This document shows positions 1,172 through 52,383 of a stretch of DNA of 54,489 nt, piece after piece (position 1 is the stretch's first letter; every line of letters begins with the position of its first letter). Position numbers and translations under genes: made by a program. Below the pieces are notes generated by a model, which was not told the origin of the DNA, did not search any database, and saw only the letters and a program-made list of their open reading frames with translations. This stretch comes from a virus (Duplodnaviria; Caudoviricetes), in IMG/VR virus record IMGVR_UViG_3300012952_000028, positions 1 to 54,489 of that record, one strand, 5' to 3'.

Positions 1172-4100
1172 AGCTCTTCTATCACCAAGTCTATCCACGC
1201 GGACCCGGTAGGGCCTAAATCCTTGATGGTGATGGCATCCTCCCCCAACCCTTGCTCTAAGAGATATTCCCGCACCACATCGCTCAAGGCTTGGCTATAG
1301 CCCTCTTCTTTGCCCTCTTGAGCGTGAATCTCTACCCTCACCTTTATCTGGGGATGTTTTTCAACCAGGCTGGCTACTTGTTTGAGGTTGGCGAATACGC
1401 TGTCTGGAAGTGCCACCACTTGGGGTTTGGGAGGTACCACTACGGGGGTGGGGACAACGGGCTTAGGTTGCGGACGCAAACTGAAGGAAACAAGCCCTCT
1501 CAGTTTAGGCGTGCCCGGTTGATTGTTGATGCCTATCCCTATAGCGGGTTGCACCACCACCGGGCCTTTCTCGAACCTCCCTCCCAATATCACTTCCGAG
1601 GGTTTAAACTCCCCGATCACTTGGACCCATTCGGCGCTAAAGCGAGCCTTTTGAGGACCCAAGTACATACCGGCCTTAGCACGGAATTGAGGTGCGCCTT
1701 TATAGAGTGCGCCTACCGATCCGGCCACCCCCCACTTAGGGCGAAACACGCCCACGGTAGCGTCCCCGTCTACCCCCCAAGGGTCGCCTGGAATGGCGGG
1801 GAGTAAAGCGCCTGCCCGTAAAGAGGTGCCGACTACAGAGCTTGAGGCTGTAAAGCCTGCTGATAGTCGGGGAGAGATGATGGAAGGTGCATTGCCAGGA
1901 ATGTATTGGAGGGGGGCGTCACCACCTACCACAAAACCCGCCTTTGAAGGTCCGAATCTCTTTTGGAACCGAAAATCGGTATGGGCCAGATGGTCCACAA
2001 AGGCTTCATCACCGGTTTCAGAGCGGTACACTAAGGGAGCCCACGCATAACCCCCCGTCACTCGAAAGGAGGAGGGGGCGCTATCCATAGGGGTGTCTAT
2101 GGCATTAAAACCATCGCCAAAGGGTACGCGGTAGGTTTGAGCGTCCACCCCCATGAGAAGGGGGACAATCAGCAGAAGAGGCCATTTCCTTTTCGGACGC
2201 CTCACTAAGAGACCGATCAAAAGCAGCCCAGTCAAAGAGATAGGCCGCATGCGGGAAGAAGTTGAACATCCCCAACCCCCGGCTAATTCTTTTGGAGGCT
2301 CAGGAGCAACATCATCTGAGGTGTCGGGCTGCCCGCTATCGGTGGGGAAGCCTGTGTCCTCGGTCTCTCCGGTGTCTCCGGTGTCGGATATTCCGGTGTC
2401 TCGGTCGTCGATTGGATCGCATGGATCCCCGATTCCATCTCCATCCAAGTCTTCCTGATCCGGGTTTGGATCTTTCGGGCAATTATCAACATCGCCGCAG
2501 ACATCATCGTCATCAACATCATTTTCAGGGTCATCGGGACATTCATCTTCAGCAGTGCAGATTCCATCGGAATCGCGGTCATCAGGATTATCTAAAGGAC
2601 ACGGATCGCAACCCCAAGGCTGGCCGTCCCCATCAGCGTCGATGGCGTCGTCATAACCGGGACAAACGTCCACGTCTCCGCAAACACCATCTTCATCCTC
2701 ATCATTTAGCGGATCATTAGGGCAGTCGTCTACGTCATCGCATAAAAGGTCGCTGTCAGTATCCCCGTAGGCGTCATCACCGTCGCAAATATCGCAATAG
2801 TCGGGAACGGTATCTCCATCCGCATCACTTAAATCATCCCCGCCAGGACACGCATCGTCTGAATCGCAAATCCCATCCCCATCCGAATCATCTAAGGGGT
2901 CAATGGGACACGGATCACAGCCGTCTGGAACTGAGTCTGCATCACTATCTGTAGAATCATCGAACCCAGGGCAAATGTCATCCGAGTCGCAAGATCCGTC
3001 ACCATCGGAATCGTCTGCGGGATCCGCAGGACAAGCGTCACAGCCGTCTGGTGTTCCGTCAGAGTCACTGTCTACAATATCGGAAAAGCCAGGACATACA
3101 TCGTCTGAATCGCAAACGCCGTCACCATCGGAATCGTCTGCCGCGTCCAAAGGACACGGATCACAGCCGTCTGGAACGCCGTCCCCGTCCCCATCTGCGA
3201 AGTCATCAAAACCGGGACATATATCGTCAGAGTCGCACGAACCATCGCCGTCCGAATCATCAGTGGCGTCTAACGGGCAGCTATCGCACCCATCGGGAGC
3301 GCCATCAGAATCGGTATCCACAGTATCCGCATACCCAGGGCAAATGTCATCTGAATCACATACGCCATCCCCGTCTGAATCGTCTGGGTTATCTAACGGA
3401 CATGGGTCACAGCCATCAGGAGTCGCATCGCTGTCCGTGTCCACGAGATCATCGAACCCAGGGCACAGATCATCACTATCACAAGAACCGTCACCATCAG
3501 AGTCATCGAGAAGATCCAAGGGGCATATATCACAAAAGTCGGGTACGCCGTCCCCATCAGCGTCATCACCGTCTGTCCCACCTGGACAAATATCATCTGA
3601 GTCACAGACGCCATCCCCGTCTGCGTCATCAGGGTTGTCCAGAGGGCACGGGTCAACATCCCCGCACACACCATCCCCGTCAAAGTCGTCTAAGGAGTCA
3701 AACGGGCATACATCGCAATCATCAGCAACACCGTCACTATCGGCATCAGCTAAGTCATCAAAGCCAGGACATGCGTCCACACCGTCCAAGACAGTATCTC
3801 CATCATCGTCCTCATCGCGAATAGAGGGGATACCATCCCCATCTATGTCAGTGGTGAAGTCCTCGTCGGAATCCAAAACCCCGTCGTTGTCCGAATCGGT
3901 TTCCAGGGCGTCTAACACCCCGTCCCCGTCGCTGTCCACGCCACTTCCAGCGTTCTCCCCCGCCACACAGGTAGGGGATACGTCCACATCTCCGTCGCAC
4001 CACCCGTCCCCATCGGAATCAGGATTAGAGGAGTCAGTGCCTATGGAGTCCTCAATTGTGTCATCTATGCCATCGTCATCAGCGTCAAGGTCAAGAGCAA

Positions 4101-5067
4101 TAACACCACTTTCAAAAAGTAGAACCCCAATATCTTCCCCGATGTGGCTTCTTTCGGTGTCATTGTACCAATCCTCGTCTATGGCGTAGCCTAAAGAGGT
4201 GGAGCTGAGAGAACATACGATGGCCCACCCGCCGTCATCTTCATTCCTACTATTCATCGACACTACAGCAGGAACCGTAGAGCTGAAGGAGGATATCAAG
4301 GTCTCGGTGGCACAACCGTCATCCTTACCAATCGCACTGGAAGATGCGCTCACCACAAGGCTTTCCCAGAGAACGGTTGAACCGTCTGTTGCGGTTAGAG
4401 ATCCCGTGGCGTTAGGTGTGATGGCGATCCACCCAATATCCTCATCAATGGTTACCGAGCCGGGAATCGCTTCGGAGCGTTCCAAGGCCACGTCGAACCC
4501 TGTAGTGCTCACGCTCTCAACTGCAACCGTTAGGAAGGGGGTGGAGTAGTCTGAAGGGACCGCCCCTGTCTCATTTTCCGTGGTTTGAACCTGGGTAAGG
4601 ATCGCCGGAGGGTCGGCAAATGATGCCCCGAAAGTGACCGGGTCCCAAGATCCTGAAAGGCCATGATTTGAAGCGTACTGCTCGGTTGTGGTAGAGGTGA
4701 TCCCAGCAATAATAAGGGAGCCGTCAGGAAGGCCGTGTACCCCTTCCTCCATAGCGATGTAAGTCATGTCTACGGCGTAATGGGTAGGCCCGGAGGTTCC
4801 TTGGGCCTCGACGATCTGAGCCTCAAATCCGGTCGTACTTACGTTTTGAATGCGAATCGTGAAGGGCTGGCCTCCGGTGCTGGGGCCTGGTGAAGCGATA
4901 ACTACTGGGGGCGCACTAAAGGTAGTCCCAAAGGTGACCGTTTCCCAGAGTTCGGTGGTAGCCGACGTGGTAGAAGGAAGGGCAACCTCAGCAGAGTCCA
5001 CTTCCAAACCCCAAGCAGGGGAGGAAAGCAAAAGCAATAATAGGCAACTCAGCCTATTCATCTTCAT
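1168..5067 (-). CDS. large surface protein: signal peptide, H-type-lectin-like repeats, thrombospondin type-3 repeats, internal MYXO-CTERM-like tag, OM beta-barrel-like region, degenerate OmpA-like C-terminus
   Basis: Signal MKMNRLSCLLLLLLSSPAWG; repeated VTFGxxFxxPP...VSTTGF units; many DxDxDGxxDxCDxCP repeats; GGWGCSTS...LLLIGLLVRRPKRK; aromatic/Gly alternating strands; LKQVASLVEKHPQIKVRVEIH...LSDVVREYLLEQG. Confidence 0.85.
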   Translation of the reverse strand: MKMNRLSCLLLLLLSSPAWGLEVDSAEVALPSTTSATTELWETVTFGTTFSAPPVVIASPGPSTGGQPFTIRIQNVSTTGFEAQIVEAQGTSGPTHYAVDMTYIAMEEGVHGLPDGSLIIAGITSTTTEQYASNHGLSGSWDPVTFGASFADPPAILTQVQTTENETGAVPSDYSTPFLTVAVESVSTTGFDVALERSEAIPGSVTIDEDIGWIAITPNATGSLTATDGSTVLWESLVVSASSSAIGKDDGCATETLISSFSSTVPAVVSMNSRNEDDGGWAIVCSLSSTSLGYAIDEDWYNDTERSHIGEDIGVLLFESGVIALDLDADDDGIDDTIEDSIGTDSSNPDSDGDGWCDGDVDVSPTCVAGENAGSGVDSDGDGVLDALETDSDNDGVLDSDEDFTTDIDGDGIPSIRDEDDDGDTVLDGVDACPGFDDLADADSDGVADDCDVCPFDSLDDFDGDGVCGDVDPCPLDNPDDADGDGVCDSDDICPGGTDGDDADGDGVPDFCDICPLDLLDDSDGDGSCDSDDLCPGFDDLVDTDSDATPDGCDPCPLDNPDDSDGDGVCDSDDICPGYADTVDTDSDGAPDGCDSCPLDATDDSDGDGSCDSDDICPGFDDFADGDGDGVPDGCDPCPLDAADDSDGDGVCDSDDVCPGFSDIVDSDSDGTPDGCDACPADPADDSDGDGSCDSDDICPGFDDSTDSDADSVPDGCDPCPIDPLDDSDGDGICDSDDACPGGDDLSDADGDTVPDYCDICDGDDAYGDTDSDLLCDDVDDCPNDPLNDEDEDGVCGDVDVCPGYDDAIDADGDGQPWGCDPCPLDNPDDRDSDGICTAEDECPDDPENDVDDDDVCGDVDNCPKDPNPDQEDLDGDGIGDPCDPIDDRDTGISDTGDTGETEDTGFPTDSGQPDTSDDVAPEPPKELAGGWGCSTSSRMRPISLTGLLLIGLLVRRPKRKWPLLLIVPLLMGVDAQTYRVPFGDGFNAIDTPMDSAPSSFRVTGGYAWAPLVYRSETGDEAFVDHLAHTDFRFQKRFGPSKAGFVVGGDAPLQYIPGNAPSIISPRLSAGFTASSSVVGTSLRAGALLPAIPGDPWGVDGDATVGVFRPKWGVAGSVGALYKGAPQFRAKAGMYLGPQKARFSAEWVQVIGEFKPSEVILGGRFEKGPVVVQPAIGIGINNQPGTPKLRGLVSFSLRPQPKPVVPTPVVVPPKPQVVALPDSVFANLKQVASLVEKHPQIKVRVEIHAQEGKEEGYSQALSDVVREYLLEQGLGEDAITIKDLGPTGSAWIDLVIEEL
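2400..4090 (-). repeat. thrombospondin type-3 (Ca-binding) tandem repeat array, about 123-nt (41-aa) period in the core
   Basis: Alternating 21-aa and 20-aa Asp/Cys units. The DNA word gtcaccatcggaatcgtctg recurs at 2998 and 3121, 123 nt apart. Boundaries approximate. Confidence 0.85.
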
Positions 5068-7639: not shown

Positions 7640-7972
7640 GTGTCGGATGGGATTACCGAGAGTCGTCGCACCGTAAGAGAGCCTCAAGAGGAGCCTTACG
7701 TTGTTGACTTGAGCACGGAAACTCCTGCTGAGGTTTGGGTTCCCTCGGCAAATACCTATGATCCCAACCCGAAGCGAGAACAAGTAAGAGGAACCATCGC
7801 CTGGTTCCTCTTAGGGATCTTGTTGCTAACCATTGTCTTTGCCTTTACCGCTCTCGCCCGCACTTGGACCGAATACGATAACATCAAGGACATGTTAGGC
7901 ATTCTCCTACCCCCTATTACAGGGTTGGTAGGATCAGCCATTGGTTTCTATTTCGGAAGGGGCACCGACTAA
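7640..7972 (+). CDS. two-TM membrane protein
   Basis: IAWFLLGILLLTIVFAFTAL and MLGILLPPITGLVGSAIGFYFG hydrophobic segments. Confidence 0.7.
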   Translation: MSDGITESRRTVREPQEEPYVVDLSTETPAEVWVPSANTYDPNPKREQVRGTIAWFLLGILLLTIVFAFTALARTWTEYDNIKDMLGILLPPITGLVGSAIGFYFGRGTD

Positions 7973-9045
7973 GCGGTGGCCTGCGCTCCGTTTTCTGACA
8001 CGGGGATGTAAGTGCAATCATCCTTCTTGGCGTGTACTGCTGTCTCCAACATCTCAAACGCTACGGCATAGGGGCATGCATTAGCGTTAGGACGGCGATC
8101 CTCTAAGTAGCCGTACCCATCCTTAGCCGTACCCAGCGGGATGCGGATAGAGGCGGTACGGTCGCTCACGCCATACTTGAAGTCCTGGTAGGAGCAAGTC
8201 TCGTGTTTTCCGGTGAGGCGCATCTCGATCCCGTCCCCATACACGGCCAAGTGGGCCTGAATACGCTCTACGTCTGCGGCAGCTTCACACCATGAGGTGA
8301 TCTCTTTCATGCCACCCTCTTCCCGCATAGCTTTGGTCGAGAAATTGGTGTGCATGCCGCTTCCGTTCCAATCTCCGGGAACAGGCTTGGGGTCGAGAGT
8401 AGCGTTGATGCCGTAGTTCTCCCCGATGCGGTAGAGAAGCCAGCGAGCCATCCAAAGATGATCCCCTACCTCAAGGGCCGTGCAGGGTCCGATCTGGAAT
8501 TCCCACTGACCGGGCATCACCTCTGCGTTTACACCACTGATCTTGATTCCTGCGTCATAACAAGCCTGAAGATGCTTCTCTACCAACTCACGTCCGTAGA
8601 CCTGATCCGCACCCGCACCGCAGTAGTAAGGGCCTTGGGCCGGGGGGTAGCGACGATCATCGCCAAACCCCAGGGGTCGGGAGCCATCAAACAAAACGTA
8701 CTCTTGCTCCATGCCGAACCAAGCATCCTCGTACCCTTGTCGAGCCGTGAGAAACTCACGCACCTTGGCGCGATTATTGGTAGGGTGCGGGATTCCGTCA
8801 GCCGTGAATACTTCACACATGGCCAAGTAGTGGCCCTCCCCCCGTACCGGGTCGGGAATCACGCAAACCGGCTTCAGTAAACAATCCGAAGAGTCCCCAT
8901 CTGCTTGCTCGGTTGAACTTCCATCAAAGCTCCATTCAGGAAGATTCAACTCCTCCCCTTCCTTAAGGTCGGGCAAAACCTTGGTCTTCGACCGAATAGC
9001 GTGGGTTGGGGTGGCTCCATCAATCCAAAGATACTCTACAAACAT
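7969..9045 (-). CDS. glnII: glutamine synthetase type II
   Basis: EYLWIDG, WSFDGSST, WFGMEQEY, QGPYYCG, NAEVMPGQWEFQIGP, PKPVPGDWNGSGMHTNFST, RLTGKHET, DRTASIRIP and GYLEDRRP all intact. ATG 9045 follows SD GGGAGG. Confidence 0.95.
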   Translation of the reverse strand: MFVEYLWIDGATPTHAIRSKTKVLPDLKEGEELNLPEWSFDGSSTEQADGDSSDCLLKPVCVIPDPVRGEGHYLAMCEVFTADGIPHPTNNRAKVREFLTARQGYEDAWFGMEQEYVLFDGSRPLGFGDDRRYPPAQGPYYCGAGADQVYGRELVEKHLQACYDAGIKISGVNAEVMPGQWEFQIGPCTALEVGDHLWMARWLLYRIGENYGINATLDPKPVPGDWNGSGMHTNFSTKAMREEGGMKEITSWCEAAADVERIQAHLAVYGDGIEMRLTGKHETCSYQDFKYGVSDRTASIRIPLGTAKDGYGYLEDRRPNANACPYAVAFEMLETAVHAKKDDCTYIPVSENGAQATA

Positions 9046-9094
9046 ACTTCCTCCCAAAGTGTGCGGCCCAACTAACTTTGAAACCGCACTTCGA

Positions 9095-10519
9095 CTAAGC
9101 ACTTTCAGCTTTTTCTATCTCTTCTAACAATTCTCTAAGAGTAGCCGACCGGAATCGCTTTGCCACCCTCCTACGGGACGCTGTGCGCGCCACCTCTACG
9201 AACTTGAGAGGGTCGAAGGACAGCTCATCTTCCCCGTCCAGTAGAGCCTCTCTAAGACTATTTGCGGCCCTCCCTTGGGAGAAGAACCTCAATAAGATTT
9301 GGGGGTTGATGTAGCTTCCCCGCGTGACCGCGTCAGTATCATGACTGAGAGCCTTTTGAGCCTTCCCGATAGCTTGGTCGAGTGTTCTCACCAAAGCCTC
9401 TACCACCTTGGCTCTCAGCTCTTCCTCTTCCAAGTCAATAAATTCCCGTACCTCGGCTTGAAGGTCAATCTGGGCTTTTCGGATCTCATCAAACACCACC
9501 TCTGTAGCCCGCAGCTTCCGAAAGTCGGTGGGAGAGATCCCCTTGAAGTTCTGCCGGAAGTAGGCACTGAGGTCTTTGGCGGTGAAACGATGGCCGTCTG
9601 GGGTGACGAAGATGAACTTGGAGCCACTCTTCTGGGCCGACTCGACCAGGCTCTTCAAGATTTTAATGACGTTCCCATCACTCAGGGTGGCGACATTAGT
9701 AGAGCTGGCCTTCCCCACGAACTCCAACTCAGCAAAGTTGTCTCGAATGAATCGAACATGGGCGGGTCCCAACGTCACCGCTCCAAATGTCTCCACCGGT
9801 ACCTTTTCCCCGTTGATGGGGTCTCGCACTAAGGTCACGTTGCCCAACTTGCCGGGTCGGATTCCGGTTTCCATGATAATAGCGGTGACCAACGCAGCCA
9901 AACGGGTGACGGGGTCTCCAGAGCGAATGTCTTTCTTGACCTTGGCGACGATTGAGTTGTAACGCTCAAGCAAGTCTCTCATCGTCTCGATCTTCTTAGC
10001 CATGGTCTTGCGCTGGGCTACAAAACGGTCAGTGATCTGCTGAACCTTTCCGTCTTCGTCTACCTCGACCACCAGATTGTCGGGAAGGAATGCCCGCAGC
10101 TCCTCTGGAATCATCGCCTTTAGGGGTTCCTGGGCCTTCCCCAACTCCCGGGCACGGTAGGCCAGAATCATGATCCCTTCGAGTTTCTCGAATGCCTTGT
10201 TGATTCCCAGCGTTCCCAGCCCCAGGTCTCGAATCATATCCATGGTGCGGTTGCGCCATGAGTAGGCTTTGGGGTCGATACTGTCCGGCCCTACCCACTT
10301 ATCAATAAATCCGAGTACGTCACCCCGCTCTTTGAGTGCAGCTTTCAAGAAGCGGGCTTGCCTCTTAGGGTTGTCGGGATGGGCAGCTTGGGCCTCTAAC
10401 ACTACTGGGTCGAGGGCTTTGACAAGCGCACGTAAGTCCCGCCGAGCGATCTTCTTCTTATCCGAGTAGGACTTTACATCCTCTTTGGACCAACTCTTTA
10501 AGCCAGGGTGAAGTGGCAT
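9095..10519 (-). CDS. DNA topoisomerase IB (bacterial/poxvirus-like)
   Basis: Catalytic pentad in order: ETGIRPG (R), LEFVGK (K), DFRKLRAT (R), LSH (H), TRGSYINP (Y); TFGAVTL matches the Topo IB xxGxxTL motif. Confidence 0.85.
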   Translation of the reverse strand: MPLHPGLKSWSKEDVKSYSDKKKIARRDLRALVKALDPVVLEAQAAHPDNPKRQARFLKAALKERGDVLGFIDKWVGPDSIDPKAYSWRNRTMDMIRDLGLGTLGINKAFEKLEGIMILAYRARELGKAQEPLKAMIPEELRAFLPDNLVVEVDEDGKVQQITDRFVAQRKTMAKKIETMRDLLERYNSIVAKVKKDIRSGDPVTRLAALVTAIIMETGIRPGKLGNVTLVRDPINGEKVPVETFGAVTLGPAHVRFIRDNFAELEFVGKASSTNVATLSDGNVIKILKSLVESAQKSGSKFIFVTPDGHRFTAKDLSAYFRQNFKGISPTDFRKLRATEVVFDEIRKAQIDLQAEVREFIDLEEEELRAKVVEALVRTLDQAIGKAQKALSHDTDAVTRGSYINPQILLRFFSQGRAANSLREALLDGEDELSFDPLKFVEVARTASRRRVAKRFRSATLRELLEEIEKAESA

Positions 10520-11349: not shown

Positions 11350-11536
11350 GACCGCCGCCGTAGCCGTCTGCTGCCCAACCTCCTCCTTTTAGGGAGAAAG
11401 AGGTTCGAGAGATCATCTTGGTCGCATTATCCCCCTTACATTTTGGGCAGGGAGGGACCACTTCTCTCTCATCATGCTTCATAAGCCTCTCAAACTTATG
11501 GCCGCAGTCTTCACATTTGAATTCAAATAGGGGCAT
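11345..11536 (-). CDS. FmdB-family zinc-ribbon protein
   Basis: MPLFEFKCEDCGHKFE...CPKC...SFSLKGGGWAADGY is the classic FmdB pattern. Confidence 0.9.
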   Translation of the reverse strand: MPLFEFKCEDCGHKFERLMKHDEREVVPPCPKCKGDNATKMISRTSFSLKGGGWAADGYGGGQ

Positions 11537-11819
11537 ACCAGTGCGCCTCCTCGTCTACATCATCAATACCCTCTTCGTCCTCCTCATCCTCTTCGCAGTC
11601 AAAGGGGTCTTTGAAACAATCCCTCACTTCCCACTTAGCTTGGAGTTGGTGAAGTTCTCGGGCTTCGCGGGTGAGGATGGTAGCACTTCCATCCTCACCA
11701 ACACTTTCCATATAGATGCTCAAGGCATCAAAGAGGCGAGAATAGTTGTCCTCTTTCGCCCGATCTACCCTAATTATCAAATCTGATACAGCATTCTTCA
11801 AATCAACGAGAGGGTCCAT
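11523..11819 (-). CDS. hypothetical protein with acidic C-terminus
   Basis: 98-aa ORF in a minus-strand operon. Confidence 0.65.
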   Translation of the reverse strand: MDPLVDLKNAVSDLIIRVDRAKEDNYSRLFDALSIYMESVGEDGSATILTREARELHQLQAKWEVRDCFKDPFDCEEDEEDEEGIDDVDEEAHWYAPI

Positions 11820-11826
11820 TCCTCAT

Positions 11827-12240
11827 TTATCCTTTGGCGTCGCAACGCTCCCAATCAGCTTGCGCTTTTTTATTTTGCATAAGGGTTTCAGCTACAGAAA
11901 AATCCCAACTAACCTTTCCGCACGGGTTGTCTTGTACTGGGTCGAACCAAGAACAGGTGGGGCAATATTGACTCGGCCACACCACGTTCTCCTTGCCCAC
12001 CCCTAACAATGATAGGCGTTCTACCTCTTGCCCCGAGGTCTGGCCTTCCATTAAAGTGAGGGATACCGTACATCCCCCCTTTTCCAACAGGGACTTAAGG
12101 TTAGCCGCTTCTTGGGTAGACAGGACCAAATGACTGACGGTGGTTCCCCCGTCGTGGTCCACGGCAGGGTTCGCAGGAACCGCTATTTGAAAAGCACTCC
12201 CTCCTTGAATCCACAAGGTGTAGAGTTGTTGGTCAGTCAC
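11827..12240 (-). CDS. hypothetical protein with CxxC motif
   Basis: 137 aa; YCPTCSW...PCG. Confidence 0.65.
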   Translation of the reverse strand: MTDQQLYTLWIQGGSAFQIAVPANPAVDHDGGTTVSHLVLSTQEAANLKSLLEKGGCTVSLTLMEGQTSGQEVERLSLLGVGKENVVWPSQYCPTCSWFDPVQDNPCGKVSWDFSVAETLMQNKKAQADWERCDAKG

Positions 12241-12586
12241 TACTCCGTGCCCCGTCTCTCCATCTCTCCAACCACTCTACTTCTTGAGGGGTATGGGACT
12301 GCCCGCCGTTGCACACTTTGAGGTCAAACCCGCCGGGATACTCCGGAATGGGATCGGAATACGCCTTCACGCTTATGACGCGCCCATGTTGATCCCTCCA
12401 TGACGATCCGTAGCACGATGCTCTCGTTAAAGTGGCTGCCACTGTATTCCGCACGTACTTCAACTCACTTTCAGGCGTGAGAAATACCAAGGGGCGCGTA
12501 GACCCCTTCTCTTTATGGTGGATGGTTCTGCATACGCAATCGGATGAAAGTCTCATGATGCCCTCTTGTAAAGATTCAAAGTCCAA
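12233..12586 (-). CDS. hypothetical protein
   Basis: 117-aa ORF filling the operon gap; start uncertain. Confidence 0.55.
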   Translation of the reverse strand: MDFESLQEGIMRLSSDCVCRTIHHKEKGSTRPLVFLTPESELKYVRNTVAATLTRASCYGSSWRDQHGRVISVKAYSDPIPEYPGGFDLKVCNGGQSHTPQEVEWLERWRDGARSSD

Positions 12587-13518
12587 CCAAATTGCCGATT
12601 GGAGATGCCGTCAAAGCGAACCACCTCCACTAAGAAATGGTCCAGTCCTTGGCTGGCCGCTTCCTGGGCAAAGTAAGCTGTGGCTAAAGTGATAGGATTA
12701 CACCCTTCCGAGATGTCTTCCGAGCCGAACACTTGCAGCACCCACCGAAAGGATTTCAGAAGGGTGTCAGAAGCGCCAGCTGAAACCCTCAAGCCTCGTT
12801 TTTCCAATTCCCCCACCAATTCTCTTTCGATAACCGGGGCGACAGAGCGGCGTCCTTGGGTGGTGGCTATCGCCAGATAGACGCACTCTCTTTGTTGCTC
12901 AGGCGCAAGTAAGGCTGCTTCTGTAGGGAACGCATCCACTTGTCTTAAGGAGGGTAGCTGACCCGCCTCATAGCCAGGAACCCCCGTAGGAGCCGGGAGC
13001 TGGGGTTGGCCTGAGGGAATGAGGGCTGTCTCCTTAACATGTTCCTCTAACGCTAATTTCATCTCTTCTCTCACTTCCTCAGACGCCCTTTTGAGCATGA
13101 GCCCAATCAAAACTGGATCGGAAGAGGTTGCCTCTACAGGCACTGCGGGAGTGGCGTCTGGAGGGAGAGGTCCCGAGCGAAACTCTGGAACATCCCCATC
13201 TACTGATGCCCTCTCCATCAAGGCTGCCTCATAGACTGGGTTGAGCTGAGGAACGCCCGTGGAGGTTTCCATTTCTATGGGGCGGCCCACCTTTTCCATG
13301 TCCTGAGGGGACATCAACGCGGTGAGCTTAGACCCTTCTTTAGCCACGTCTTCTAAGAGTTGGGCTTCGGAAAGCAGGGAGAATAGATGGGGGACCGCCT
13401 CCTCCATCGTCAGCTCCCCCGACCTGATTTGCTCGTAAATCTCTTCCGCTCCGGGTACCCTCGCAACGAGGTCGCTTACCTTCCCCAAGAGTTGTAGAAT
13501 ATCGTCTTGCTGGCTCAT
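12553..13518 (-). CDS. hypothetical protein
   Basis: 321-aa ORF; no motif recognised. Confidence 0.75.
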   Translation of the reverse strand: MSQQDDILQLLGKVSDLVARVPGAEEIYEQIRSGELTMEEAVPHLFSLLSEAQLLEDVAKEGSKLTALMSPQDMEKVGRPIEMETSTGVPQLNPVYEAALMERASVDGDVPEFRSGPLPPDATPAVPVEATSSDPVLIGLMLKRASEEVREEMKLALEEHVKETALIPSGQPQLPAPTGVPGYEAGQLPSLRQVDAFPTEAALLAPEQQRECVYLAIATTQGRRSVAPVIERELVGELEKRGLRVSAGASDTLLKSFRWVLQVFGSEDISEGCNPITLATAYFAQEAASQGLDHFLVEVVRFDGISNRQFGWTLNLYKRAS

Positions 13519-13520
13519 GG

Positions 13521-14603
13521 CTATTCCGCTTTGAACATGTCTAAGACAGGGGTGGATTCCCCTCGTTGCCGTACCTTTCTACTTTGAGAGATACCCTCCA
13601 AGCGGCTCTTAGCTTCGGGCAAAGAAGCAATATTCACATCTATTCCGATGTAATTTCTCCCGTGGTCCAAAGCTGCACTTCCCGTGGTAGCGGTTCCTGA
13701 AAAGGGATCGAGAACCGTGGCGGGCCGAAACCCGTCATTATGCCCGCAGCTGAGAATCCAACACCCATTCTCAACACGGGGAGGCGTGCCGCAAGTGGCA
13801 CAAACCCCCTTTTCAGGCGTTGAGGCTAAGATCATCGGCTCTACTAAGTCATAGGGCCACGGGGATACTGACTTACCCAAGTAGGAGCCCAAATTGACTT
13901 TCCAAACTGTTCCCTTGTTCTTCCCCTTAGGGTGCCATGCCTTTTCTAAGTCAGGGCGTTTAGCCCACCCTCCAGCCATAATTGTCCCTTTGTTGTAGCC
14001 CTTTACGTGCTTCTCATCTTGAGACTTATGAGCCTCCCTCAAAGGATCGGCGTTGTAGAAGTATTGACCCCCGCTCTCCGGGTGTGCCAATAAGAAGAGG
14101 GTTCCGTGGGATTGGGATAATCTATCGGTATGAGCGCCAAACCCTGTCGGGTTGTCGGGAGCCCAGATAATGTCATTACGAACAACCCACCCATCTGCCT
14201 GAAGAGCTAAGGCTACGCGGGTGGGGATGAGGCCGAGTTGCTTGTTGTCAAGGTAACGGTCCCTCACGTAAATCCACGCCGTCCCGTCCTTTCTCAAGAA
14301 TGTCTGCACTTTTCGCATAGCCAGGACGCAGTGGCCGATAAACTCTTCCACTGTGGCTTCCATCCCCAGCACGCTTTCTTGAGCGGCTACTTTGATAGGC
14401 CTGGAATCGACAAAGGGGGTGTATGAAAATCGGGGCCATTGGACCGCCTCTCCATCCGATTGTCCAGGGACGGGAAACTCCGCGCAAACCACATGAACGC
14501 TATGGTCGGGCAAGCGAGCGTCCAGTACAGATGACCCATAAATAAGGGTAGCTGTAGGGGACTTATCGCCTAATTTCGGCTTCAAGTAGATGGGTTCAAC
14601 CAT
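13521..14603 (-). CDS. beta-class N4/N6 DNA methyltransferase homolog with degenerate catalytic motif
   Basis: Collinear with phage beta-MTases (LPDHSVH, LGMEATVEEFIGH, LRKDGTAW, IPTRVALALQADGWVVRNDIIW, VLDPFSGTATTG, YIGIDVN), but TSPPY is replaced by AEFPV. Confidence 0.85.
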   Translation of the reverse strand: MVEPIYLKPKLGDKSPTATLIYGSSVLDARLPDHSVHVVCAEFPVPGQSDGEAVQWPRFSYTPFVDSRPIKVAAQESVLGMEATVEEFIGHCVLAMRKVQTFLRKDGTAWIYVRDRYLDNKQLGLIPTRVALALQADGWVVRNDIIWAPDNPTGFGAHTDRLSQSHGTLFLLAHPESGGQYFYNADPLREAHKSQDEKHVKGYNKGTIMAGGWAKRPDLEKAWHPKGKNKGTVWKVNLGSYLGKSVSPWPYDLVEPMILASTPEKGVCATCGTPPRVENGCWILSCGHNDGFRPATVLDPFSGTATTGSAALDHGRNYIGIDVNIASLPEAKSRLEGISQSRKVRQRGESTPVLDMFKAE

Positions 14604-14621
14604 GTGACCTCCACTTAAACA

Positions 14622-14792
14622 TTAGGGTTTAGGGGTGTCGGACAACCCCCCAACAAAGACTATTCTCATGGTGTTCCGCTTCCCGTTCCGTCGAATACGA
14701 ACTGCGGACTTTTCAGGTACTTGCACCCCTCGCGCTTCCAGGGCTTCCTTGAGGAGTTGGACTATCTCGGGTTGTTCCAAGACGATTTCCAT
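14622..14792 (-). CDS. small hypothetical protein
   Basis: MEIVLEQPEIVQLLKEAL...; ATG 14792 overlaps the dioxygenase TGA. Confidence 0.6.
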   Translation of the reverse strand: MEIVLEQPEIVQLLKEALEARGVQVPEKSAVRIRRNGKRNTMRIVFVGGLSDTPKP

Positions 14793-15946
14793 CACTCTTC
14801 CCCAAACAATTCTTGTAAGTAGGCCACCTCTTCCTCCATCTTTTGAAGAGTCTCTTGATGCCTCTCCCGGTTCAAGGCAGCCTTTTGCTTGGAGGTGAGG
14901 AAAGTGGACTTCCACTTCGCATATTTAGCGGCCTCCTCTTCTTGGGAAGCGCAATGTTTCATCCTTACTCGGGCATAACACACCACGCTTATGCGCTCAT
15001 AATCATCCCCTACAGGTACCATGGGGGTGTTGCAATGCCACTGATGAACGTCCATCGCAAGGAAGTCTCCCGTCCTGACATCTACAGCCACCCGAAACTT
15101 GGGAAAGCCTGTGTAGCCCCCTTTGTAGGGGTCTCCCTCAATAACGGTGAGGTTCCCAAACCCTTGGGGGAAGTCTCCCGCGTCTTTGTGGGCGGCGGTT
15201 CTCCAGTTACGGTTCACAGTAATGGTGGTGAAGACAGTATCCCCTAAGGTCCAGCCGTTAGGGGAGATACCCGTATCCTCCACGAATTGCTTTTGGGCCA
15301 GCCATCGTTGGGGAGCTTGGTTACGAAAGCACTGGCTCACCGCTTCCAAGTATGGCACTGCTGCTTCAGTGCGGCCAGGGTTGGCTTTGGTGTAGCCAGT
15401 CTGACGACAGAACGGGTGCCTCTCTTCGGCGTTGTAGTATCCGGCAACCCCACTGTTAGAGAGGTTAGCAATATCTACTTTAGACACGGTGCCGTCCTCA
15501 AGGACATATCGGGCGCGAGTGCCGCTGCCTCCCAGCATGACCAACTTCCCTTTGGCGGTAGCCCGAACTCGAGAGGGGTCAATCTTGCCGCTGGCCAACC
15601 CTCGGTTATCGGCTTTCTTGGCTGCTCCCCGAAGGTGCTCCGCAGCAGTGTCGCATAAGTCTTGGGGGATCACCCCTTTCCGAAAAGAGAGTAGGAGGCG
15701 ATCTTCCACGTCCTCTTCACTAAACATAGAGATGGCATCAGATGCCCCTGGCCGGTAGATGTCGCAATCGCGGTTTACGATGATAGCATAGTGATCCTCA
15801 TCAATAAACTCCCCGCCTAAGCGATCTACCTCATAATCGGGGAGGATGCCAGGACCGCTCAACTCTATCTTGAGGATGCCTTGCTCTTCCCACTCCCAAC
15901 CTTCCAGGTCCCCCCGTCTAAAGGGCGTGGCGTCAGATGGCCTCAT
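14792..15946 (-). CDS. TET/JBP-family 2OG-Fe(II) dioxygenase (5-methylpyrimidine oxygenase)
   Basis: TVFTTITVNRNWRTAAHKDAGD (HxD), GNLTV, GGYTGFPKFRVAVDVRTGDFLAMDVHQWHCNTP (distal H), ERISVVCY (2OG-binding R): the phage TET/JBP signature. Confidence 0.88.
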   Translation of the reverse strand: MRPSDATPFRRGDLEGWEWEEQGILKIELSGPGILPDYEVDRLGGEFIDEDHYAIIVNRDCDIYRPGASDAISMFSEEDVEDRLLLSFRKGVIPQDLCDTAAEHLRGAAKKADNRGLASGKIDPSRVRATAKGKLVMLGGSGTRARYVLEDGTVSKVDIANLSNSGVAGYYNAEERHPFCRQTGYTKANPGRTEAAVPYLEAVSQCFRNQAPQRWLAQKQFVEDTGISPNGWTLGDTVFTTITVNRNWRTAAHKDAGDFPQGFGNLTVIEGDPYKGGYTGFPKFRVAVDVRTGDFLAMDVHQWHCNTPMVPVGDDYERISVVCYARVRMKHCASQEEEAAKYAKWKSTFLTSKQKAALNRERHQETLQKMEEEVAYLQELFGEE

Positions 15947-16218
15947 TCCTTCCCCATTAAGGTGCGGGCACTTTGGAGAATGAGCGTGTCTTCCTGATCC
16001 AGGGTTTCCAAGACTGATGGCTCTACCTTCTCAGCCAAAGTGCATAAGACTTTGGCGAATCCCCTCACCTGCTTAGTTTCAGAAGTGATTTCAGCTATAT
16101 CCTGCTTGTGCTCTTCTACTTGTTTGAGGAGGTCAGCGACTTTTGAAAGGTCATTGCTCTTCAATGAAGACTTACGCGCAAGGCGTTGTAAATTTCGGCG
16201 TTGTTTGCGATTGGCCAT
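15943..16218 (-). CDS. hypothetical basic coiled-coil protein
   Basis: ATG 16218 (MANRKQRR) after SD AGGAG; ATGA overlap with the dioxygenase. Confidence 0.65.
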   Translation of the reverse strand: MANRKQRRNLQRLARKSSLKSNDLSKVADLLKQVEEHKQDIAEITSETKQVRGFAKVLCTLAEKVEPSVLETLDQEDTLILQSARTLMGKE

Positions 16219-16260
16219 AAGTACTCCTACCTCCCTCATTACCCGCACCAGTCCATCCCC

Positions 16261-16284
16261 CGCCCCCCAATAGAGGGTTTATTG
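16261..16284 (+). promoter_or_regulatory. candidate promoter: CGCCCCCCAATAG box plus TA-N6-TTAT motif
   Basis: The 13-mer cgccccccaatag is identical to 20732-20744; both lie in divergent intergenic gaps. Confidence 0.5.
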
Positions 16285-16310
16285 CCAGTCAAGGCGAAGG
16301 AGTTTCCCCA

Positions 16311-16967
16311 ATGAAAAAGTTCTCTTTATTGCTTATCGGCCTCATTCTTACGGGCTGCCCTAAGAAACCTCTGCCTACCGGAGTGGCTCCTGATCCTACC
16401 CCAATCATCATTGTGGGCCTCGACACGGGTGCCCAGTTGAGTGCCGCGTCAGGTAAGATGGCTGAGGAATCGGAAGACTATGTAGGTTGTATGGTCGGCT
16501 CGGTGCTGGCCTCGGCCCTTGAGACTGCCAAGGAAGGAGTTGAGGGCAACTTAGACGGTGGGCTCTTACCCAGCGTAGATGTGGATATCAGTGGTTGCCT
16601 ACCTTTGGCAGAGAAGATGCCTGAAGGTCAAGACGTTCCGGCTATTGTTCAACCCATGTTTGACATGGCCCTTCAAGCATCAAAGGCAGCTGTTGCCGTT
16701 TATGGGGAAGACATGGCGTGTGCGCCTAAAGCGTGGACGATGGGAGGGCTGGAGTATGCCGAAGGACTGGTACCAGTAGTTATTGCGGAAGTTGCCAGCC
16801 CTGATGGAGTTCTCTCTATCCCGCAAGTTGCGGTGAACTTAGAGCCTTGCGCTCCAGCCGAACCTGCTCCTGAGCCAGAGGCAGAAGGTGATGACGATGA
16901 CAGCGCCAGTGATGAGGAGAAAATTGAATCAGAGGAAGAGGCTGCTGAGGCACAACCTGCCGAATGA
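16311..16967 (+). CDS. lipoprotein with acidic C-terminal tail
   Basis: MKKFSLLLIGLILTG-CPKK lipobox; SD AAGGAG; PEPAPEPEAEGDDDDSA tail. Confidence 0.8.
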   Translation: MKKFSLLLIGLILTGCPKKPLPTGVAPDPTPIIIVGLDTGAQLSAASGKMAEESEDYVGCMVGSVLASALETAKEGVEGNLDGGLLPSVDVDISGCLPLAEKMPEGQDVPAIVQPMFDMALQASKAAVAVYGEDMACAPKAWTMGGLEYAEGLVPVVIAEVASPDGVLSIPQVAVNLEPCAPAEPAPEPEAEGDDDDSASDEEKIESEEEAAEAQPAE

Positions 16968-17386
16968 TTGGTAACGCCCCTAAGTGCCCGAAGAATGGAA
17001 AGCGGTCCAACACCGTCTTCATCATTCAGATTACGTGCGCCTCCATCCTCATCACTTTCGTAGGAGCGTCGTTGACGCTCATCTTTGGAAAGCCAGAGGA
17101 TCCCAGCAACTACCTGGACTTTGCGGGTCAAGTAGTGTTATGGCTGGGCGCAGCGGGGGGCATAACCGCACCAGCTAAGAAGCTGGGGGATGCGTGGCAC
17201 GACAAGGGGAAGGCCCAGCCTACTCCCCCCACCCCGGCTCCAAGGCCTGCCGTCAGCAGCGCACCCGCACCTCCCACAACGCCTACAGCAGAAGACACCC
17301 CCACCGAACCTGAAAAGCAGTGCAGTAACTGTGGAATGCTTAATCCCGGTGACCCCTGTAGCAACTGCGGTGCCGCACAGTCATAA
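16964..17386 (+). CDS. two-TM membrane protein with Pro-rich linker and C-terminal zinc ribbon
   Basis: Two hydrophobic segments, PTPPTPAP linker, CSNC...CSNC. Confidence 0.7.
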   Translation: MIGNAPKCPKNGKRSNTVFIIQITCASILITFVGASLTLIFGKPEDPSNYLDFAGQVVLWLGAAGGITAPAKKLGDAWHDKGKAQPTPPTPAPRPAVSSAPAPPTTPTAEDTPTEPEKQCSNCGMLNPGDPCSNCGAAQS

Positions 17387-17411
17387 AGGGTAGAGTCAAG
17401 GGGAGGCTACT

Positions 17412-18305
17412 GTGAAGATCCCCGACTTATGGAATAACTGTTACGATGGCGAACATCGTAAAGCGATGTCTCCGGAAGAGTTCAAAAAGACCTTCTGCGA
17501 TGTGTGCATGAACTCAGGCTGCACTAACTCTAAAGGTGCGGGTACTCAGTGGATGAAGAGGATGATGACCCAAGAGGATCGTCTCCTAAACAATCCTAAT
17601 TTCGCCAACACAAGTGATCCCCGCTTCTCTGGCTTCGCCGAGATGGACTTCAAGAACATGATGCAACAAGCGTTGGCCATTGAGATTGCTGACCGCAAAG
17701 GGGATTGGGAAATTCCCACCCAAGAGGAGATCGGCCAAGCAGCAGCCGAGATGCTGGGGATGATCCCTCCACCTGCCTTCCAACCAGAACCTGAACCTGA
17801 ACCAGAACCTGAACCCGAACCAGAACCTGAGCCAGAACCGGAGGCACCCCCTCAGCGTCTGGTAGATGAGGTGGGGCAGACTGACATCGAAGGGAAACGG
17901 GTCCAACCTGAGCGTGAGTCTGAACCTGAAGAGGATGAGGTAAAGGGACGCTGGAACGTCAAAGGGGACAGCGGCAACCTTTACACCGTAACTCAACACG
18001 AAGACGGCTCATGGGACTGTACTTGTCCGGCGCGGAAAGAGTGTAAGCATATTCGGGGCCTGCAGACTAAGTTGTCGAGAATTGCCCCCGAGCCAGTCAC
18101 CGAAAATCCAACACGTCCTCCTCCTGGAGCTTTCACCCGAACCCCTCAGGCTATGAACACCGCGCAACCTTCGGGCGGCGTGCTGTTAGGAGGACCACCG
18201 CCTCCCCCCACCCCCGAAGTGGATCCTTGGGCTGCTCCCCCCACCAAACCTAAAGAGCGAGTCATTGAGGTTGGGGGAAAGGTGACGTTTGGAAAGAAGA
18301 GTTAG
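17412..18305 (+). CDS. SWIM zinc-finger protein with (PE)n linker
   Basis: VKGDSGNLYTV...WDCTCPARKECKHI (CxC-xn-CxH SWIM); N-terminal Cys cluster; SD GGGAGG before GTG. Confidence 0.8.
   Translation: MKIPDLWNNCYDGEHRKAMSPEEFKKTFCDVCMNSGCTNSKGAGTQWMKRMMTQEDRLLNNPNFANTSDPRFSGFAEMDFKNMMQQALAIEIADRKGDWEIPTQEEIGQAAAEMLGMIPPPAFQPEPEPEPEPEPEPEPEPEPEAPPQRLVDEVGQTDIEGKRVQPERESEPEEDEVKGRWNVKGDSGNLYTVTQHEDGSWDCTCPARKECKHIRGLQTKLSRIAPEPVTENPTRPPPGAFTRTPQAMNTAQPSGGVLLGGPPPPPTPEVDPWAAPPTKPKERVIEVGGKVTFGKKS
17784..17843 (+). repeat. (Pro-Glu)10 coding repeat
   Basis: ccNgaR hexamer tandem array in frame. Confidence 0.85.
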
Positions 18306-18775
18306 CTCAAGCTGAACTGATCTCCTACCACTACTAAAGTATGGCGATCCTCTTTCCATGCTTGAGCTACAGTGCGGAAGAGAGCGAGAGTTGTTTCGCT
18401 TCCTCCTAATATAGGAGGGTCATAACATGCTGGTGGTCCCGGTTGCTTACGGGTTCCACCGGGTCGGCAGACACCCTCATTCCAATCAATACAGTTACCG
18501 GCCATAGCGCACTCTCCCTCGGCCTTTAGGACGCGCCGTGCCGAGTCTTGGGGGCTACGCCCTAAGACTTCTAAGAGGGGCTGCATAAAGCCGTGTAGGG
18601 CGTGAGAGAGGACTTCCCCCGGTATTACCCCAACCCCCTCGGCCCAGCTGGTCCCTCTTAAGGGTTCCAACTCCCCCCAATCCTCATCGCTTCCATTAGT
18701 GATGAGAAGGAGGACCTTCTCCGAATGGGCGCGACCATCCCCCATAGGGTCATCGGTGAGGTCAATCTCCCTCAT
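18302..18775 (-). CDS. hypothetical Cys-containing protein
   Basis: 157 aa, four Cys; overlaps the upstream MTase fragment gene. Confidence 0.65.
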   Translation of the reverse strand: MREIDLTDDPMGDGRAHSEKVLLLITNGSDEDWGELEPLRGTSWAEGVGVIPGEVLSHALHGFMQPLLEVLGRSPQDSARRVLKAEGECAMAGNCIDWNEGVCRPGGTRKQPGPPACYDPPILGGSETTLALFRTVAQAWKEDRHTLVVVGDQFSLS

Positions 18776-19169
18776 CAGCTTTTACCTGTTTGAAGAAGCG
18801 GGATGCCCCGCCCGTATCTGAAATCGAGGAGGTAGGAGCCGACCTTCCAGACCCCCAAATACTACTTACGCCATTTGCCTTAGACTCTCGGTGGTTGTCG
18901 CCCAACTCTCCTGTTTGCTCATCTAAGGCTTTTACGGGGCATCCCTCTACGCAGATCCAGTTGGTCCCTGTGACCTTCTTGACCCCCTCGCACCTACAAC
19001 CATCGAGATGCTGGAGGATCAGGTTGGCGGGCCATCTTCCCCCCACTGGCCTTTCCCCTGTTCCGATGCGGGAAGCGTCAATATTCAAAGCCCCGGTGCC
19101 GTGCTTCAGCACGTTCTGGGCTACGGACCCTTCAGACTTAGGTTTACGGAGTACGTGGATCACTTTCAT
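18762..19169 (-). CDS. split DNA methyltransferase, middle (TRD/insert) subunit
   Basis: MKVIHVLRKP..GSVAQNVLKHGTGALNIDASRI...GRWPANLIL...GGASRFF is the central segment of phage beta-class MTases. ATG 19169 in ATGA overlap. Confidence 0.8.
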   Translation of the reverse strand: MKVIHVLRKPKSEGSVAQNVLKHGTGALNIDASRIGTGERPVGGRWPANLILQHLDGCRCEGVKKVTGTNWICVEGCPVKALDEQTGELGDNHRESKANGVSSIWGSGRSAPTSSISDTGGASRFFKQVKADEGD

Positions 19170-19759
19170 AGCTTGTAGCCGATCACTACGGGTTCCCAAG
19201 CAGGCTTCAAAGCGGTGCCCCAGCCTTCCCACTTTTGGCCTTCTTTAGTCGCAGCGGTTGTTACCCGCATGGGGGCTAAGGGCTTATCCTCTCGCAATCC
19301 GTGCGCCACCAAATCTCCATCGAAGCCTCTACTGCCATGACGGTGGGCGGGTCGATGGTTAGGGTTTGGCCCCACCGCGATAGATTGCACTCCTAATGAT
19401 TTGTCGATAGCCTTCCCAATATTCAAAGACTTGGGGAAGCCGGAGCCATAGGCCCAGGCTTCGAGAGATATGTTCTGAAATCCCACGTCCTCCATAGCAG
19501 CTGCTAAGTGATGTAAGGTACGGGTTCCACCGAAGGCTTTGATAATCCCTCCGGGCTTCAAAACCCTGTAGGCTTGTTCCAGCCAATCCTTATGCCATAA
19601 CCGTTGGGCTTCTCCCTCCCCTAAGTCGTCAAACTCTTTCCCCATAAACTTCAACCCGTAGGGAGGGTCACACACAAAAGCCTCTACGGAGCCTTCCGAA
19701 AGCTCTTTCATCACGTCAACGCAGTCACCGTGCCTCAAATCAATCGTCTGTAAAGCCAA
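19166..19759 (-). CDS. split DNA methyltransferase, catalytic (DPPY) subunit
   Basis: HGDCVDVMK, VCDPPYGLKFMGK, RVLKPGG, FGGTRTLHHL, WAYGSGFPKS, WEGWGTALKPAWEP; no FxGxG motif. Confidence 0.88.
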   Translation of the reverse strand: MALQTIDLRHGDCVDVMKELSEGSVEAFVCDPPYGLKFMGKEFDDLGEGEAQRLWHKDWLEQAYRVLKPGGIIKAFGGTRTLHHLAAAMEDVGFQNISLEAWAYGSGFPKSLNIGKAIDKSLGVQSIAVGPNPNHRPAHRHGSRGFDGDLVAHGLREDKPLAPMRVTTAATKEGQKWEGWGTALKPAWEPVVIGYKL

Positions 19760-20510
19760 AGAACTCCCCCATTGACATTTCAGGTGCCTCTTCCATTACC
19801 ACTTCCCGGTCGGATTTTATTACAGCATTATCCCAAGCCATCGCTCTTTCGTTCCAATGGCGAACACGGGAGTCTGCTATGGCGTGGTACTCCTCGCTCT
19901 TTTCGATCCCGATCCCGTCATGGCCGGTGGCTAAGCAAGCGATCATCGTAGTACCGGAACCCATGAAAGGATCTAATACCACGCCCTCCACGCCGTCTAA
20001 GACCTTCTCCATGACCTCTACGGGCTTTACCGTAGGATGGATGTTGCGACGTTGCTGAACGCGATTCATACCCACTGTTCCCGGCTTGTCAAACTCGTAG
20101 TCTTCGCCGTCTTCAATGGCTTGGCGTGCCCCCCGAGACATTCCAAATGTCTGAACCGGAAGGTGGGTGAGGCCCTCTTCCCTCTCAGAGCGCGATGCTT
20201 TGGGCGTATAGTGAATGGTGCTCCCCTCCTGAGCCAAAAAGATCGCATCCCTCACCTCAAACCCCAAGGATTCCGCTTCCGATGCCCCCGTATGTCCCGT
20301 GGGCTCATCGTCTGGGGCTATTAAGAATAGGTGCCCGCCCGGTTTTAAGACACGGTACGCCTCATCTACGGCTGACGCATCCTCTAAAACGATAGCGTGT
20401 ATAGAGGCATCGTCATGCTGACCCCACCCGTACCCTTCCGAAGCATGGATACAAATGCCATCTTCAGGGGTCGCTAAACCTTCCAGATAATTACCAATTG
20501 ATTGGGTCAT
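19740..20510 (-). CDS. split DNA methyltransferase, SAM-binding subunit with degenerate catalytic half
   Basis: YTPKASRSEREEG, NIHPTVKP, VLDPFMGSGTT, GIGIEKSEEY. The N-terminal half keeps RVLKPGGH and GFEVRD but has no DPPY. Confidence 0.85.
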   Translation of the reverse strand: MTQSIGNYLEGLATPEDGICIHASEGYGWGQHDDASIHAIVLEDASAVDEAYRVLKPGGHLFLIAPDDEPTGHTGASEAESLGFEVRDAIFLAQEGSTIHYTPKASRSEREEGLTHLPVQTFGMSRGARQAIEDGEDYEFDKPGTVGMNRVQQRRNIHPTVKPVEVMEKVLDGVEGVVLDPFMGSGTTMIACLATGHDGIGIEKSEEYHAIADSRVRHWNERAMAWDNAVIKSDREVVMEEAPEMSMGEFFGFTDD

Positions 20511-52367: not shown

Positions 52368-52383
52368 ATATAAACACACTACC
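52368..52383 (-). promoter_or_regulatory. candidate late promoter motif GGTA-N6-TTATAT
   Basis: Reads ggtagtgtgtttatat upstream of SD AGGAGG and the tape-measure ATG. Confidence 0.5.

Follow-up and report, generated by a model that had tools for sequence, protein, structure and literature searches.

The question raised by this locus is whether a TET/JBP-family dioxygenase and an altered DNA methyltransferase homolog, encoded close together in a virus, act jointly in the modification of viral DNA or merely share a neighbourhood. The locus lies in the IMG/VR record IMGVR_UViG_3300012952_000028 (Duplodnaviria; Caudoviricetes), whose whole sequence of 54,489 bases, of the linear class, was analysed and is here called the window. 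Since the CheckV completeness estimate for the record is 10%, the window is a fragment of a much larger virus, which may be a very large phage or a large virus of another kind, and the sequencing runs containing parts of it carry marine or seawater metagenome labels. An earlier note, made from the letters of the window, had proposed that the two genes form one coupled operon in which the methyltransferase homolog, its catalytic motifs lost, is an adaptor for the dioxygenase or has gained new chemistry on the oxidised base. Fold, motifs, conservation, synteny and gene packing point, at a probability of roughly 0.5, to a somewhat different arrangement: an intact dioxygenase and, maintained by selection, a putative DNA-modification protein that would bind S-adenosylmethionine (SAM) and have a changed acceptor or role, working chiefly with three downstream proteins (o321, o117 and o137) and having the dioxygenase as a facultative neighbour. 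The two genes in question are the following.

14792 to 15946, minus strand: predicted TET/JBP-family Fe(II)/2-oxoglutarate 5-methylpyrimidine dioxygenase (TET), 384 amino acids (aa); PF12851, phrog_24024

13521 to 14603, minus strand: beta-class N6/N4 DNA methyltransferase homolog of the 'TELPV clade' (the homolog), 360 aa; PF01555

The TET open reading frame (ORF) scored 63 bits against PF12851, for which the cut-off is 34.9 (65.3 bits in a six-frame search), and matched phrog_24024 with an E-value of 3.1e-74. Its catalytic domain covers approximately residues 168-326, and the N-terminus carries a conserved extension of about 150 aa. In a 31-row family alignment the residues H253, D255, H301, H304 and R318 were invariant, which bears out the earlier description of an intact HxD...H...R enzyme; going by the family, we take HxD...H to be the Fe(II) triad, and the arginine presumably binds 2-oxoglutarate. 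No match to PDB sequences was found at E ≤ 1. The closest match in a cultured phage, at 36% identity, is the TET homolog of Pelagibacter phage HTVC112P, which is flanked by a ParB_N gene directly before it and by an FkbM methyltransferase. A further relative at 43% identity (P0148, 658 aa) is fused to the P-loop kinase family Ploopntkinase3 (PF18751), and the accessible text of the preprint 10.1101/2025.08.14.668559 counts P-loop kinases annotated with PF18751 among the known machinery of thymine hypermodification. The TET would most likely act on the replicated DNA of the virus itself, oxidising thymine or 5-methylcytosine (5mC); the kinase-fused relative, the literature and a window without a C5-methyltransferase are hints that favour thymine as the probable substrate. 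Many of the nearest TET relatives in IMG/VR (L242-L321, 29-42% identity) were found on records named as giant-virus metagenome-assembled genomes.

The homolog scored 91 bits against PF01555 (cut-off 26.7), and the profile search suggested in the earlier note thus placed both proteins above the Pfam gathering cut-offs. The protein that the record itself gives for the window contig (P0002) has a late start and 280 aa. Homologs align from residue 1 and have D13, P16, L20, P44 and W56 invariant, so that this form must be too short, and the full-length reading of the earlier note is thereby upheld. In the alignment with canonical relatives, motif IV reads AEFPV in place of TSPPY, W(L)NLGDSY has become W(I)YVRDRY, HEY has become HGT and AHFA[TV]WP has become SVSPWP. 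On the SAM side, the loop DPFSGTATTG differs from the DPFSGSATTG of the SPPY relatives by a single S to T change. The acidic residue of IGID is present, D322 (motif II) is kept in at least 90% of the clade rows, and D299, G303, T307, G308 and G320 are invariant in the clade alignment. The motif changes and the retained SAM loop had been described in the same terms before, and the alignment agrees. The homolog also carries a Zn-ribbon-like CxxC...C.H insert.

An AlphaFold2 (AF2) model of the homolog, with a predicted local distance difference test score (pLDDT) of 80, has a beta-class fold. Its best Foldseek matches were CcrM (4.9e-15), in a complex with double-stranded DNA, M.BceJIV (9.2e-15), MboIIA and RsrI. 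Held against the PF01555 class, the homolog has the profile score, the predicted fold, the SAM loop and motif II, and its motif IV does not follow the form (D/N/S)-P-P-(Y/F/W), for which reason it was not filed as an amino-methyltransferase. According to the accessible text of PMC7544214, motif IV works through its first residue, which takes a proton from the amino group, and through its aromatic residue, which stacks on the target base. Because the residues of this textbook account are lost, the clade should not carry out standard N6/N4 methyl transfer. As judged from the alignments, the target-amino pocket is rebuilt as a charged site of E42, R114, D115 and R116 that lacks a stacking aromatic, and the SAM side looks like that of active relatives; from these motifs we infer that the homolog binds SAM.

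A word-index search with the homolog gave 729 relatives. Canonical motif IV was absent from all of the top 29 (P0001-P0029, 43-100% identity), 25 of which have T-E/D-[LV]-P-[VATG] or AEFPV; the remaining four are three short forms (P0002, P0020 and P0029) and P0016, which is of full length and outside the motif pattern. The sequence [RK]D[RK][YH] recurs across the set, and clade members of as little as 43% identity still have T-E-[LF]-P-V, VRD[RK]Y, HGT and SVSPWP. A 27-row clade alignment (43-83% identity) contains 70 invariant columns and has a mean column identity of 62%. When 1.84 billion representatives were searched by profile, three clade clusters were returned at 572, 473 and 462 bits, followed by canonical enzymes at 306 bits. 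A quick maximum-likelihood tree was made of 53 rows, with 24 canonical rows sampled and P0002, P0020 and P0029 omitted as short. The clade was monophyletic in this tree, with 28 of 28 rows on one side of a branch (Shimodaira-Hasegawa-like approximate likelihood ratio test 98) and deep branching inside it. The nearest outgroups are SPPY enzymes with TSPPY, NLGD, HEY and AHFAxWP. Two sequences may record steps of the motif change: P0277 has the canonical TSPPY and yet the insert WP..SY.P of the clade after motif IV, and P0283, intermediate-looking and on a very long branch, has TELPT without RDRY and HGT. Altogether 47 sequences were without a motif IV that the regular expression recognised as canonical; 16 of them are mostly N-terminally short, and 12 of these have NLGD.

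At least three clade loci (L162, L163 and L164) were read from metagenomes. The homolog of L163 has 48% identity to that of the window, versus 38% for o321, 31% for o117 and 33% for o137, and no gene of its neighbourhood is better conserved. The homolog is, by its sequence relationships, an offshoot of active SPPY-type beta-class DNA amino-methyltransferases, and to judge from its conservation it is under selection and not decaying. Neutral decay, which the earlier note had listed among the outcomes that would refute its proposal, is excluded, since the altered motifs have become fixed across a monophyletic clade of deep branching. A search of viral contigs with the single protein found no relatives. 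With the clade alignment, distant methyltransferases only were found, at no more than 36% identity in viral contigs and no more than 31% over the full length in genome contigs, where one match of 59% covers 44 residues only.

The genes around this pair, all read on the same strand, are these.

15943 to 16248, minus strand: o101, 101 aa, function not assigned; its stop overlaps the TET start by 4 nucleotides (nt)

14622 to 14792, minus strand: orf56, a candidate ORF of 56 codons in the gap between TET and homolog; its ATG overlaps the TET stop (TGATG)

12553 to 13518, minus strand: o321, 321 aa, no fold match; it starts 2 nt after the homolog stop

12233 to 12586, minus strand: o117, 117 aa; found by tblastn in L162/L163 in the same order (31% identity, E 6e-9)

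11827 to 12240, minus strand: o137, 137 aa; found by tblastn in L162/L163 (33% identity, E 8e-15)

The coupled operon claimed in the earlier note stands for the most part, given the TGATG overlap, a GGAGG 5 nt before the homolog ATG and the gap of 2 nt to o321. The packing is even tighter than described there, for the 188 nt that separate TET from the homolog hold the candidate orf56, which ends 18 nt before the homolog ATG. Further downstream, o117 and o137 overlap each other. The junction between TET and homolog is bridged by contigs from two other seawater runs, and positions 11500-17500 are covered without joints by a 6745-bp contig from a third run, which differs in 280 letters. In the ORF list, dense gene packing with stops overlapping starts is seen across the whole window, and a promoter/terminator scan gave a site count no higher than in shuffled sequence.

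The conserved motifs of o321 in the alignment are LNPxYEAA..ER...DGDVPE.R.G and TTQGRRS, and its AF2 model has a pLDDT of 78. For this protein no Foldseek match was found at E ≤ 0.001 in PDB and BFVD, no Pfam or PHROG family was assigned, no relatives were found in viral contigs and nothing usable came from the Atlas search. The proteins o117 and o137 also lack a Pfam or PHROG family, and the Atlas search with o137 was likewise without a usable lead. The candidate orf56 has no Pfam family and no significant match in the loci of the relatives. No Pfam family, no ParB signal and no homolog in L162-L165 could be found for o101, which has one weak PHROG match of unknown function (E 0.0035).

In L162 and L163, two near-identical contigs in which the homolog is 48% identical to that of the window, the order homolog-o321-o117-o137 is conserved. 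In L164 (44% identical) the start of o321 follows the homolog at the cut end of the contig. By this synteny the first link of the homolog is to the downstream block o321-o117-o137, and its link to TET appears facultative. The conserved homolog block and a conserved gene on the far side of TET (window 18302-18775; L163 8605-9093) enclose a variable island, of which TET is part. Approximately 900 bp separate the counterpart of window ORF 18302-18775 from the methyltransferase homolog in L163, and in L164 the arrangement of this region is different and partly inverted. Co-occurrence of the pair was indicated by the homolog relative P0001 (83%) and the TET relative P0122 (79%), the longest contig of both being 3959 bp, and by a lineage of approximately 51% identity in which homolog and TET clusters share contigs of 51203, 84778, 39212, 55919, 222049, 13734 and 7811 bp; for these eight further contigs, sharing was judged by equal size in bp and not from read sequence. 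Two more pairs, consisting of TET and o321, have equal contigs of 11984 and 17971 bp. Among 80 IMG/VR loci with distant TETs (29-42% identity), neither the homolog nor any other neighbour from the window was present within 8 kb (0/80). For 115 immediate-neighbour ORFs at 62 distinct loci with distant TETs, Erv1/Alr was the commonest family (n = 23), followed by CDO_I (n = 6), and none of the 25 families listed is an N6/N4 methyltransferase, a C5-methyltransferase or ParB.

Several of the observations made at these loci weigh against the reading given at the outset. No TET is present within 10 kb of the homolog in L162/L163, nor is any other PF01555-like ORF within the same distance, and L164 is without a TET in the 2.7 kb upstream of the homolog. 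A TET relative (P0123, 74%) and an o321 relative (P0245, 64%) are each on a single 2811-bp contig, which has no room for the 1083-bp homolog because TET and o321 need 2118 bp. No homolog of 60-75% identity is present in the database, as against TET relatives of 68-74% and o321 relatives of 58-65%. The co-occurrence on shared contigs is one of equal bp only, for which the shared ancestry of one viral lineage may suffice. The lack of linkage in relatives that the earlier note had regarded as fatal was therefore seen in L162/L163, L164, the 2811-bp contig and the 80 distant TET loci, and was not seen on the eight shared contigs. Any joint pathway of TET and homolog must be dispensable, because the homolog occurs without a nearby TET and TET occurs with o321 without the homolog. 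TET is accordingly best described as a frequent but dispensable neighbour, with no support for a pathway in which it is obligate. As in a pseudoenzyme, the charged residues of the E/R/D/R site could fill it themselves through a network of salt bridges. The downstream partners have no recognisable fold, so that the idea of a module is argued from synteny, and approximately 90% of the virus genome lies outside the record. A complex prediction for TET and homolog scored 0.00 in two runs, which is no answer and counts neither way on binding.

Other genes of DNA modification were searched for in the 54.5-kb record, and none was found of PF00145, ParB_N (PF02195, at E ≤ 1), TAGT (PF20691), Ploopntkinase3 (PF18751) and ADDT (PF18724). 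A cluster of C5-methyltransferase and glycosyltransferase is not seen (PF00145 0, PF20691 0; other glycosyltransferase families were not searched one by one), and the co-located ParB-like activator that would mark a ParB-dependent thymine dioxygenase was not found in the record. The earlier observation that the window has no recognisable C5-methyltransferase or transferase partner is consistent with these searches (no matches to PF00145 or PF20691), and the absence means little because the record is approximately 10% of the genome. Its premise that phage 5-methylpyrimidine dioxygenases (5mYOX) usually sit beside a C5-methyltransferase is outdated. In the accessible text of PMC13229309, a C5-methyltransferase co-occurs with only 6% of the mined phage 5mYOX pathways, and for this reason, and in view of the small part of the genome covered, its lack here is not unusual. 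In the same text most phage enzymes without a C5-methyltransferase are predicted thymine dioxygenases, one 5mYOX subclass needs a ParB-like activator, the enzyme 5mYOX176 needs its ParB only on double-stranded DNA, and N6/N4 methyltransferases and O-methyltransferases are among the co-occurring domains. In the accessible text of preprint 10.1101/2025.08.14.668559, methyltransferases are annotated with PF01555 among other profiles; of the papers searched, this preprint alone contains both PF01555 and PF12851. No description of a methyltransferase clade with eroded motif IV was found in the literature searched, supplements excepted.

Set beside the phage 5mYOX enzymes (PMC8256090; PMC13229309), the window TET is alike in its PF12851 domain with HxD...H...R and in its viral origin. 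It is also without an adjacent C5-methyltransferase, as is the predicted thymine-dioxygenase majority in the accessible text of PMC13229309, and has nearby a gene of the N6/N4 methyltransferase family, which is a co-occurrence class of that text. It differs by its length of 384 aa with the N-terminal extension, by a visible fragment without matches to ParB, TAGT glycosyltransferase, kinase or AADT, and by the eroded motif IV of the neighbouring methyltransferase-family gene. The homolog shares with CcrM, M.BceJIV, M.MboIIA, M.RsrI and M.PvuII the predicted fold, the motif order with IV before I, and the SAM loop. The blocks RN[DE]IIW and DR.T..H are those of beta-class methyltransferases, and the Zn-ribbon insert is common to the SPPY relatives; the differences are AEFPV/TELPV versus (D/N/S)PP(Y/F/W), VRDRY versus NLGDSY, HGT versus HEY, and SVSPWP versus AHFAxWP. 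METTL14 and MTA9, the MT-A70 partners, resemble the homolog as selected beta-class relatives with a Glu first in motif IV (EPPL there, E[LF]PV here), whereas the homolog has intact SAM motifs, is viral and stands alone. In the marine Nonlabens phage P12024L, a TET homolog (30% identity) is found two genes from a PF01555 protein, but that methyltransferase has a canonical DPPYG and a TAGT glycosyltransferase lies between the two.

How the homolog might act without textbook transfer can be seen in more than one way. It could be an activator or adaptor that binds DNA and flips the base or opens the duplex for TET, like ParB in one subclass of thymine dioxygenases. The eroded motif IV, the tight gene packing and a best predicted-fold match to CcrM with double-stranded DNA would suit such a role, as would the dependence of 5mYOX176 on its ParB only on double-stranded DNA (in the accessible text of PMC13229309) and the position of the closest cultured-phage TET directly after a ParB_N gene, of which the window has none. 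This account is nevertheless rather unlikely, for the SAM motifs are invariant and a pure DNA-binding adaptor would not need them, some relatives retain the homolog with no TET nearby and others retain TET with no homolog, and a ParB could sit in the other 90% of the genome. Like METTL14 or MTA9, the homolog could instead be the non-catalytic half of a beta-class methyltransferase dimer, recognising DNA for a nearby DPPY paralog and leaving TET incidental. A DPPY-bearing methyltransferase ORF does lie upstream, at a distance of approximately 5 kb in the window and 1.5 kb in L164, but the gene in the window is itself fragmentary, L162/L163 have no such paralog within 10 kb, and the intact motif I is unlike the SAM site of METTL14, all of which makes this quite improbable.

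Two further accounts deny either the change of function or the meaning of the neighbourhood. That the homolog is still an ordinary DNA amino-methyltransferase, its motif IV unusual in having Glu where Asp/Ser is the rule, would agree with the predicted full-length beta-class fold, the kept SAM motifs and D115 of the NLGD/VRDR motif, which is invariant in the clade and the canonical groups. We consider it very improbable, as motif IV has lost both its second proline and the aromatic that stacks on the base in the accessible text of PMC7544214, and three more catalytic-side motifs are altered in concert. The adjacency might also be meaningless, the homolog block serving a process other than DNA modification and TET being an independent accessory gene of the variable island. 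That the TET region differs among relatives (approximately 900 bp in L163, partly inverted in L164), that the homolog is at 0/80 distant TET loci and that N6/N4 methyltransferases are missing from the 25 families listed for 115 TET neighbours would be expected from this. The close relatives of the homolog are, however, all DNA methyltransferases, further DNA methyltransferase genes are in the same neighbourhood, and TET and homolog recur on at least eight further contigs (by equal bp) across approximately 51% divergence, and we rate this account as doubtful, no higher than the activator.

The preferred reading of a selected DNA-modification protein with a facultative TET neighbour would run as follows. 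TET would oxidise thymine (or 5mC) in viral DNA after replication. The homolog would bind SAM and work on DNA with an altered acceptor or role, without textbook N6/N4 transfer, and its main partners would be the conserved downstream proteins o321, o117 and o137. A bolder reading, which is unlikely, would place the TELPV-clade protein in an undescribed post-replicative pyrimidine pathway, either as a SAM enzyme on the TET-oxidised base or as a base-flipping activator that replaces ParB, with o321, o117 and o137 completing the system. As a SAM enzyme it might use the Glu/Arg/Asp/Arg pocket, for example, to O-methylate 5-hydroxymethyluracil or 5-hydroxymethylcytosine, or to esterify 5-carboxyuracil or 5-carboxycytosine.

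Epigenetic sequencing draws enzymes from the hypermodification pathways of phage DNA, which also shape how phages and host restriction systems evolve against each other. A rebuilt acceptor pocket beside a kept SAM site, both apparently under selection, is a candidate for new SAM-dependent DNA chemistry or, in addition to ParB, for a second kind of dioxygenase activator. Should it prove to be neither, the clade would still be a clean, datable case of function change in a DNA methyltransferase. A PF01555 annotation beside TET can hide proteins that are not expected to methylate amino groups.

Upstream of TET, at 18762-20510 on the minus strand, three overlapping ORFs in different frames contain permuted pieces of beta-class methyltransferases. 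Of PF01555, the ORF at 19740-20510 contains the C-terminal part alone (HPTVKP, DPFMGSGTT), and its own N-terminal region is motif IV-VI-like, with LEDAS at the place of DPPY; 19166-19759 has an N-terminal methyltransferase part with DPPYG, and 18762-19232 a middle part (RKP...GTGALNID...ASRFF). The pieces look complementary and could be a split enzyme, a rearrangement or the result of frameshifts. Between the canonical methyltransferase genes and the homolog, in the window (17412-18305, plus strand) as in L164 (1227-2087), lies a conserved ORF whose orientation relative to the homolog is opposite; both its N- and its C-terminal part are Cys-rich (CTCP...CKH), and the window copy has a PEPEPE repeat.

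Almost all large ORFs of the window are without Pfam or PHROG families, and no structural or replication families were found among them by Pfam and PHROGs. PHROG families were found for 0 of the 10 large ORFs tested, which do not include the ORF of 3714 aa. This ORF and one of 1635 aa (27710-38854 and 41877-46784, minus strand) have no Pfam family, and the 396-aa protein at 52379-53569 had no relatives in viral contigs. A 1299-aa protein at 1168-5067 (minus strand) contains an H-type lectin domain at residues 42-106. Two genes at 7969-10519, downstream of the TET/homolog run and on the same minus strand, overlap by 8 nt; one encodes a glutamine synthetase homolog (Gln-synt_N and Gln-synt_C), the other a eukaryotic-type topoisomerase IB (PF01028).

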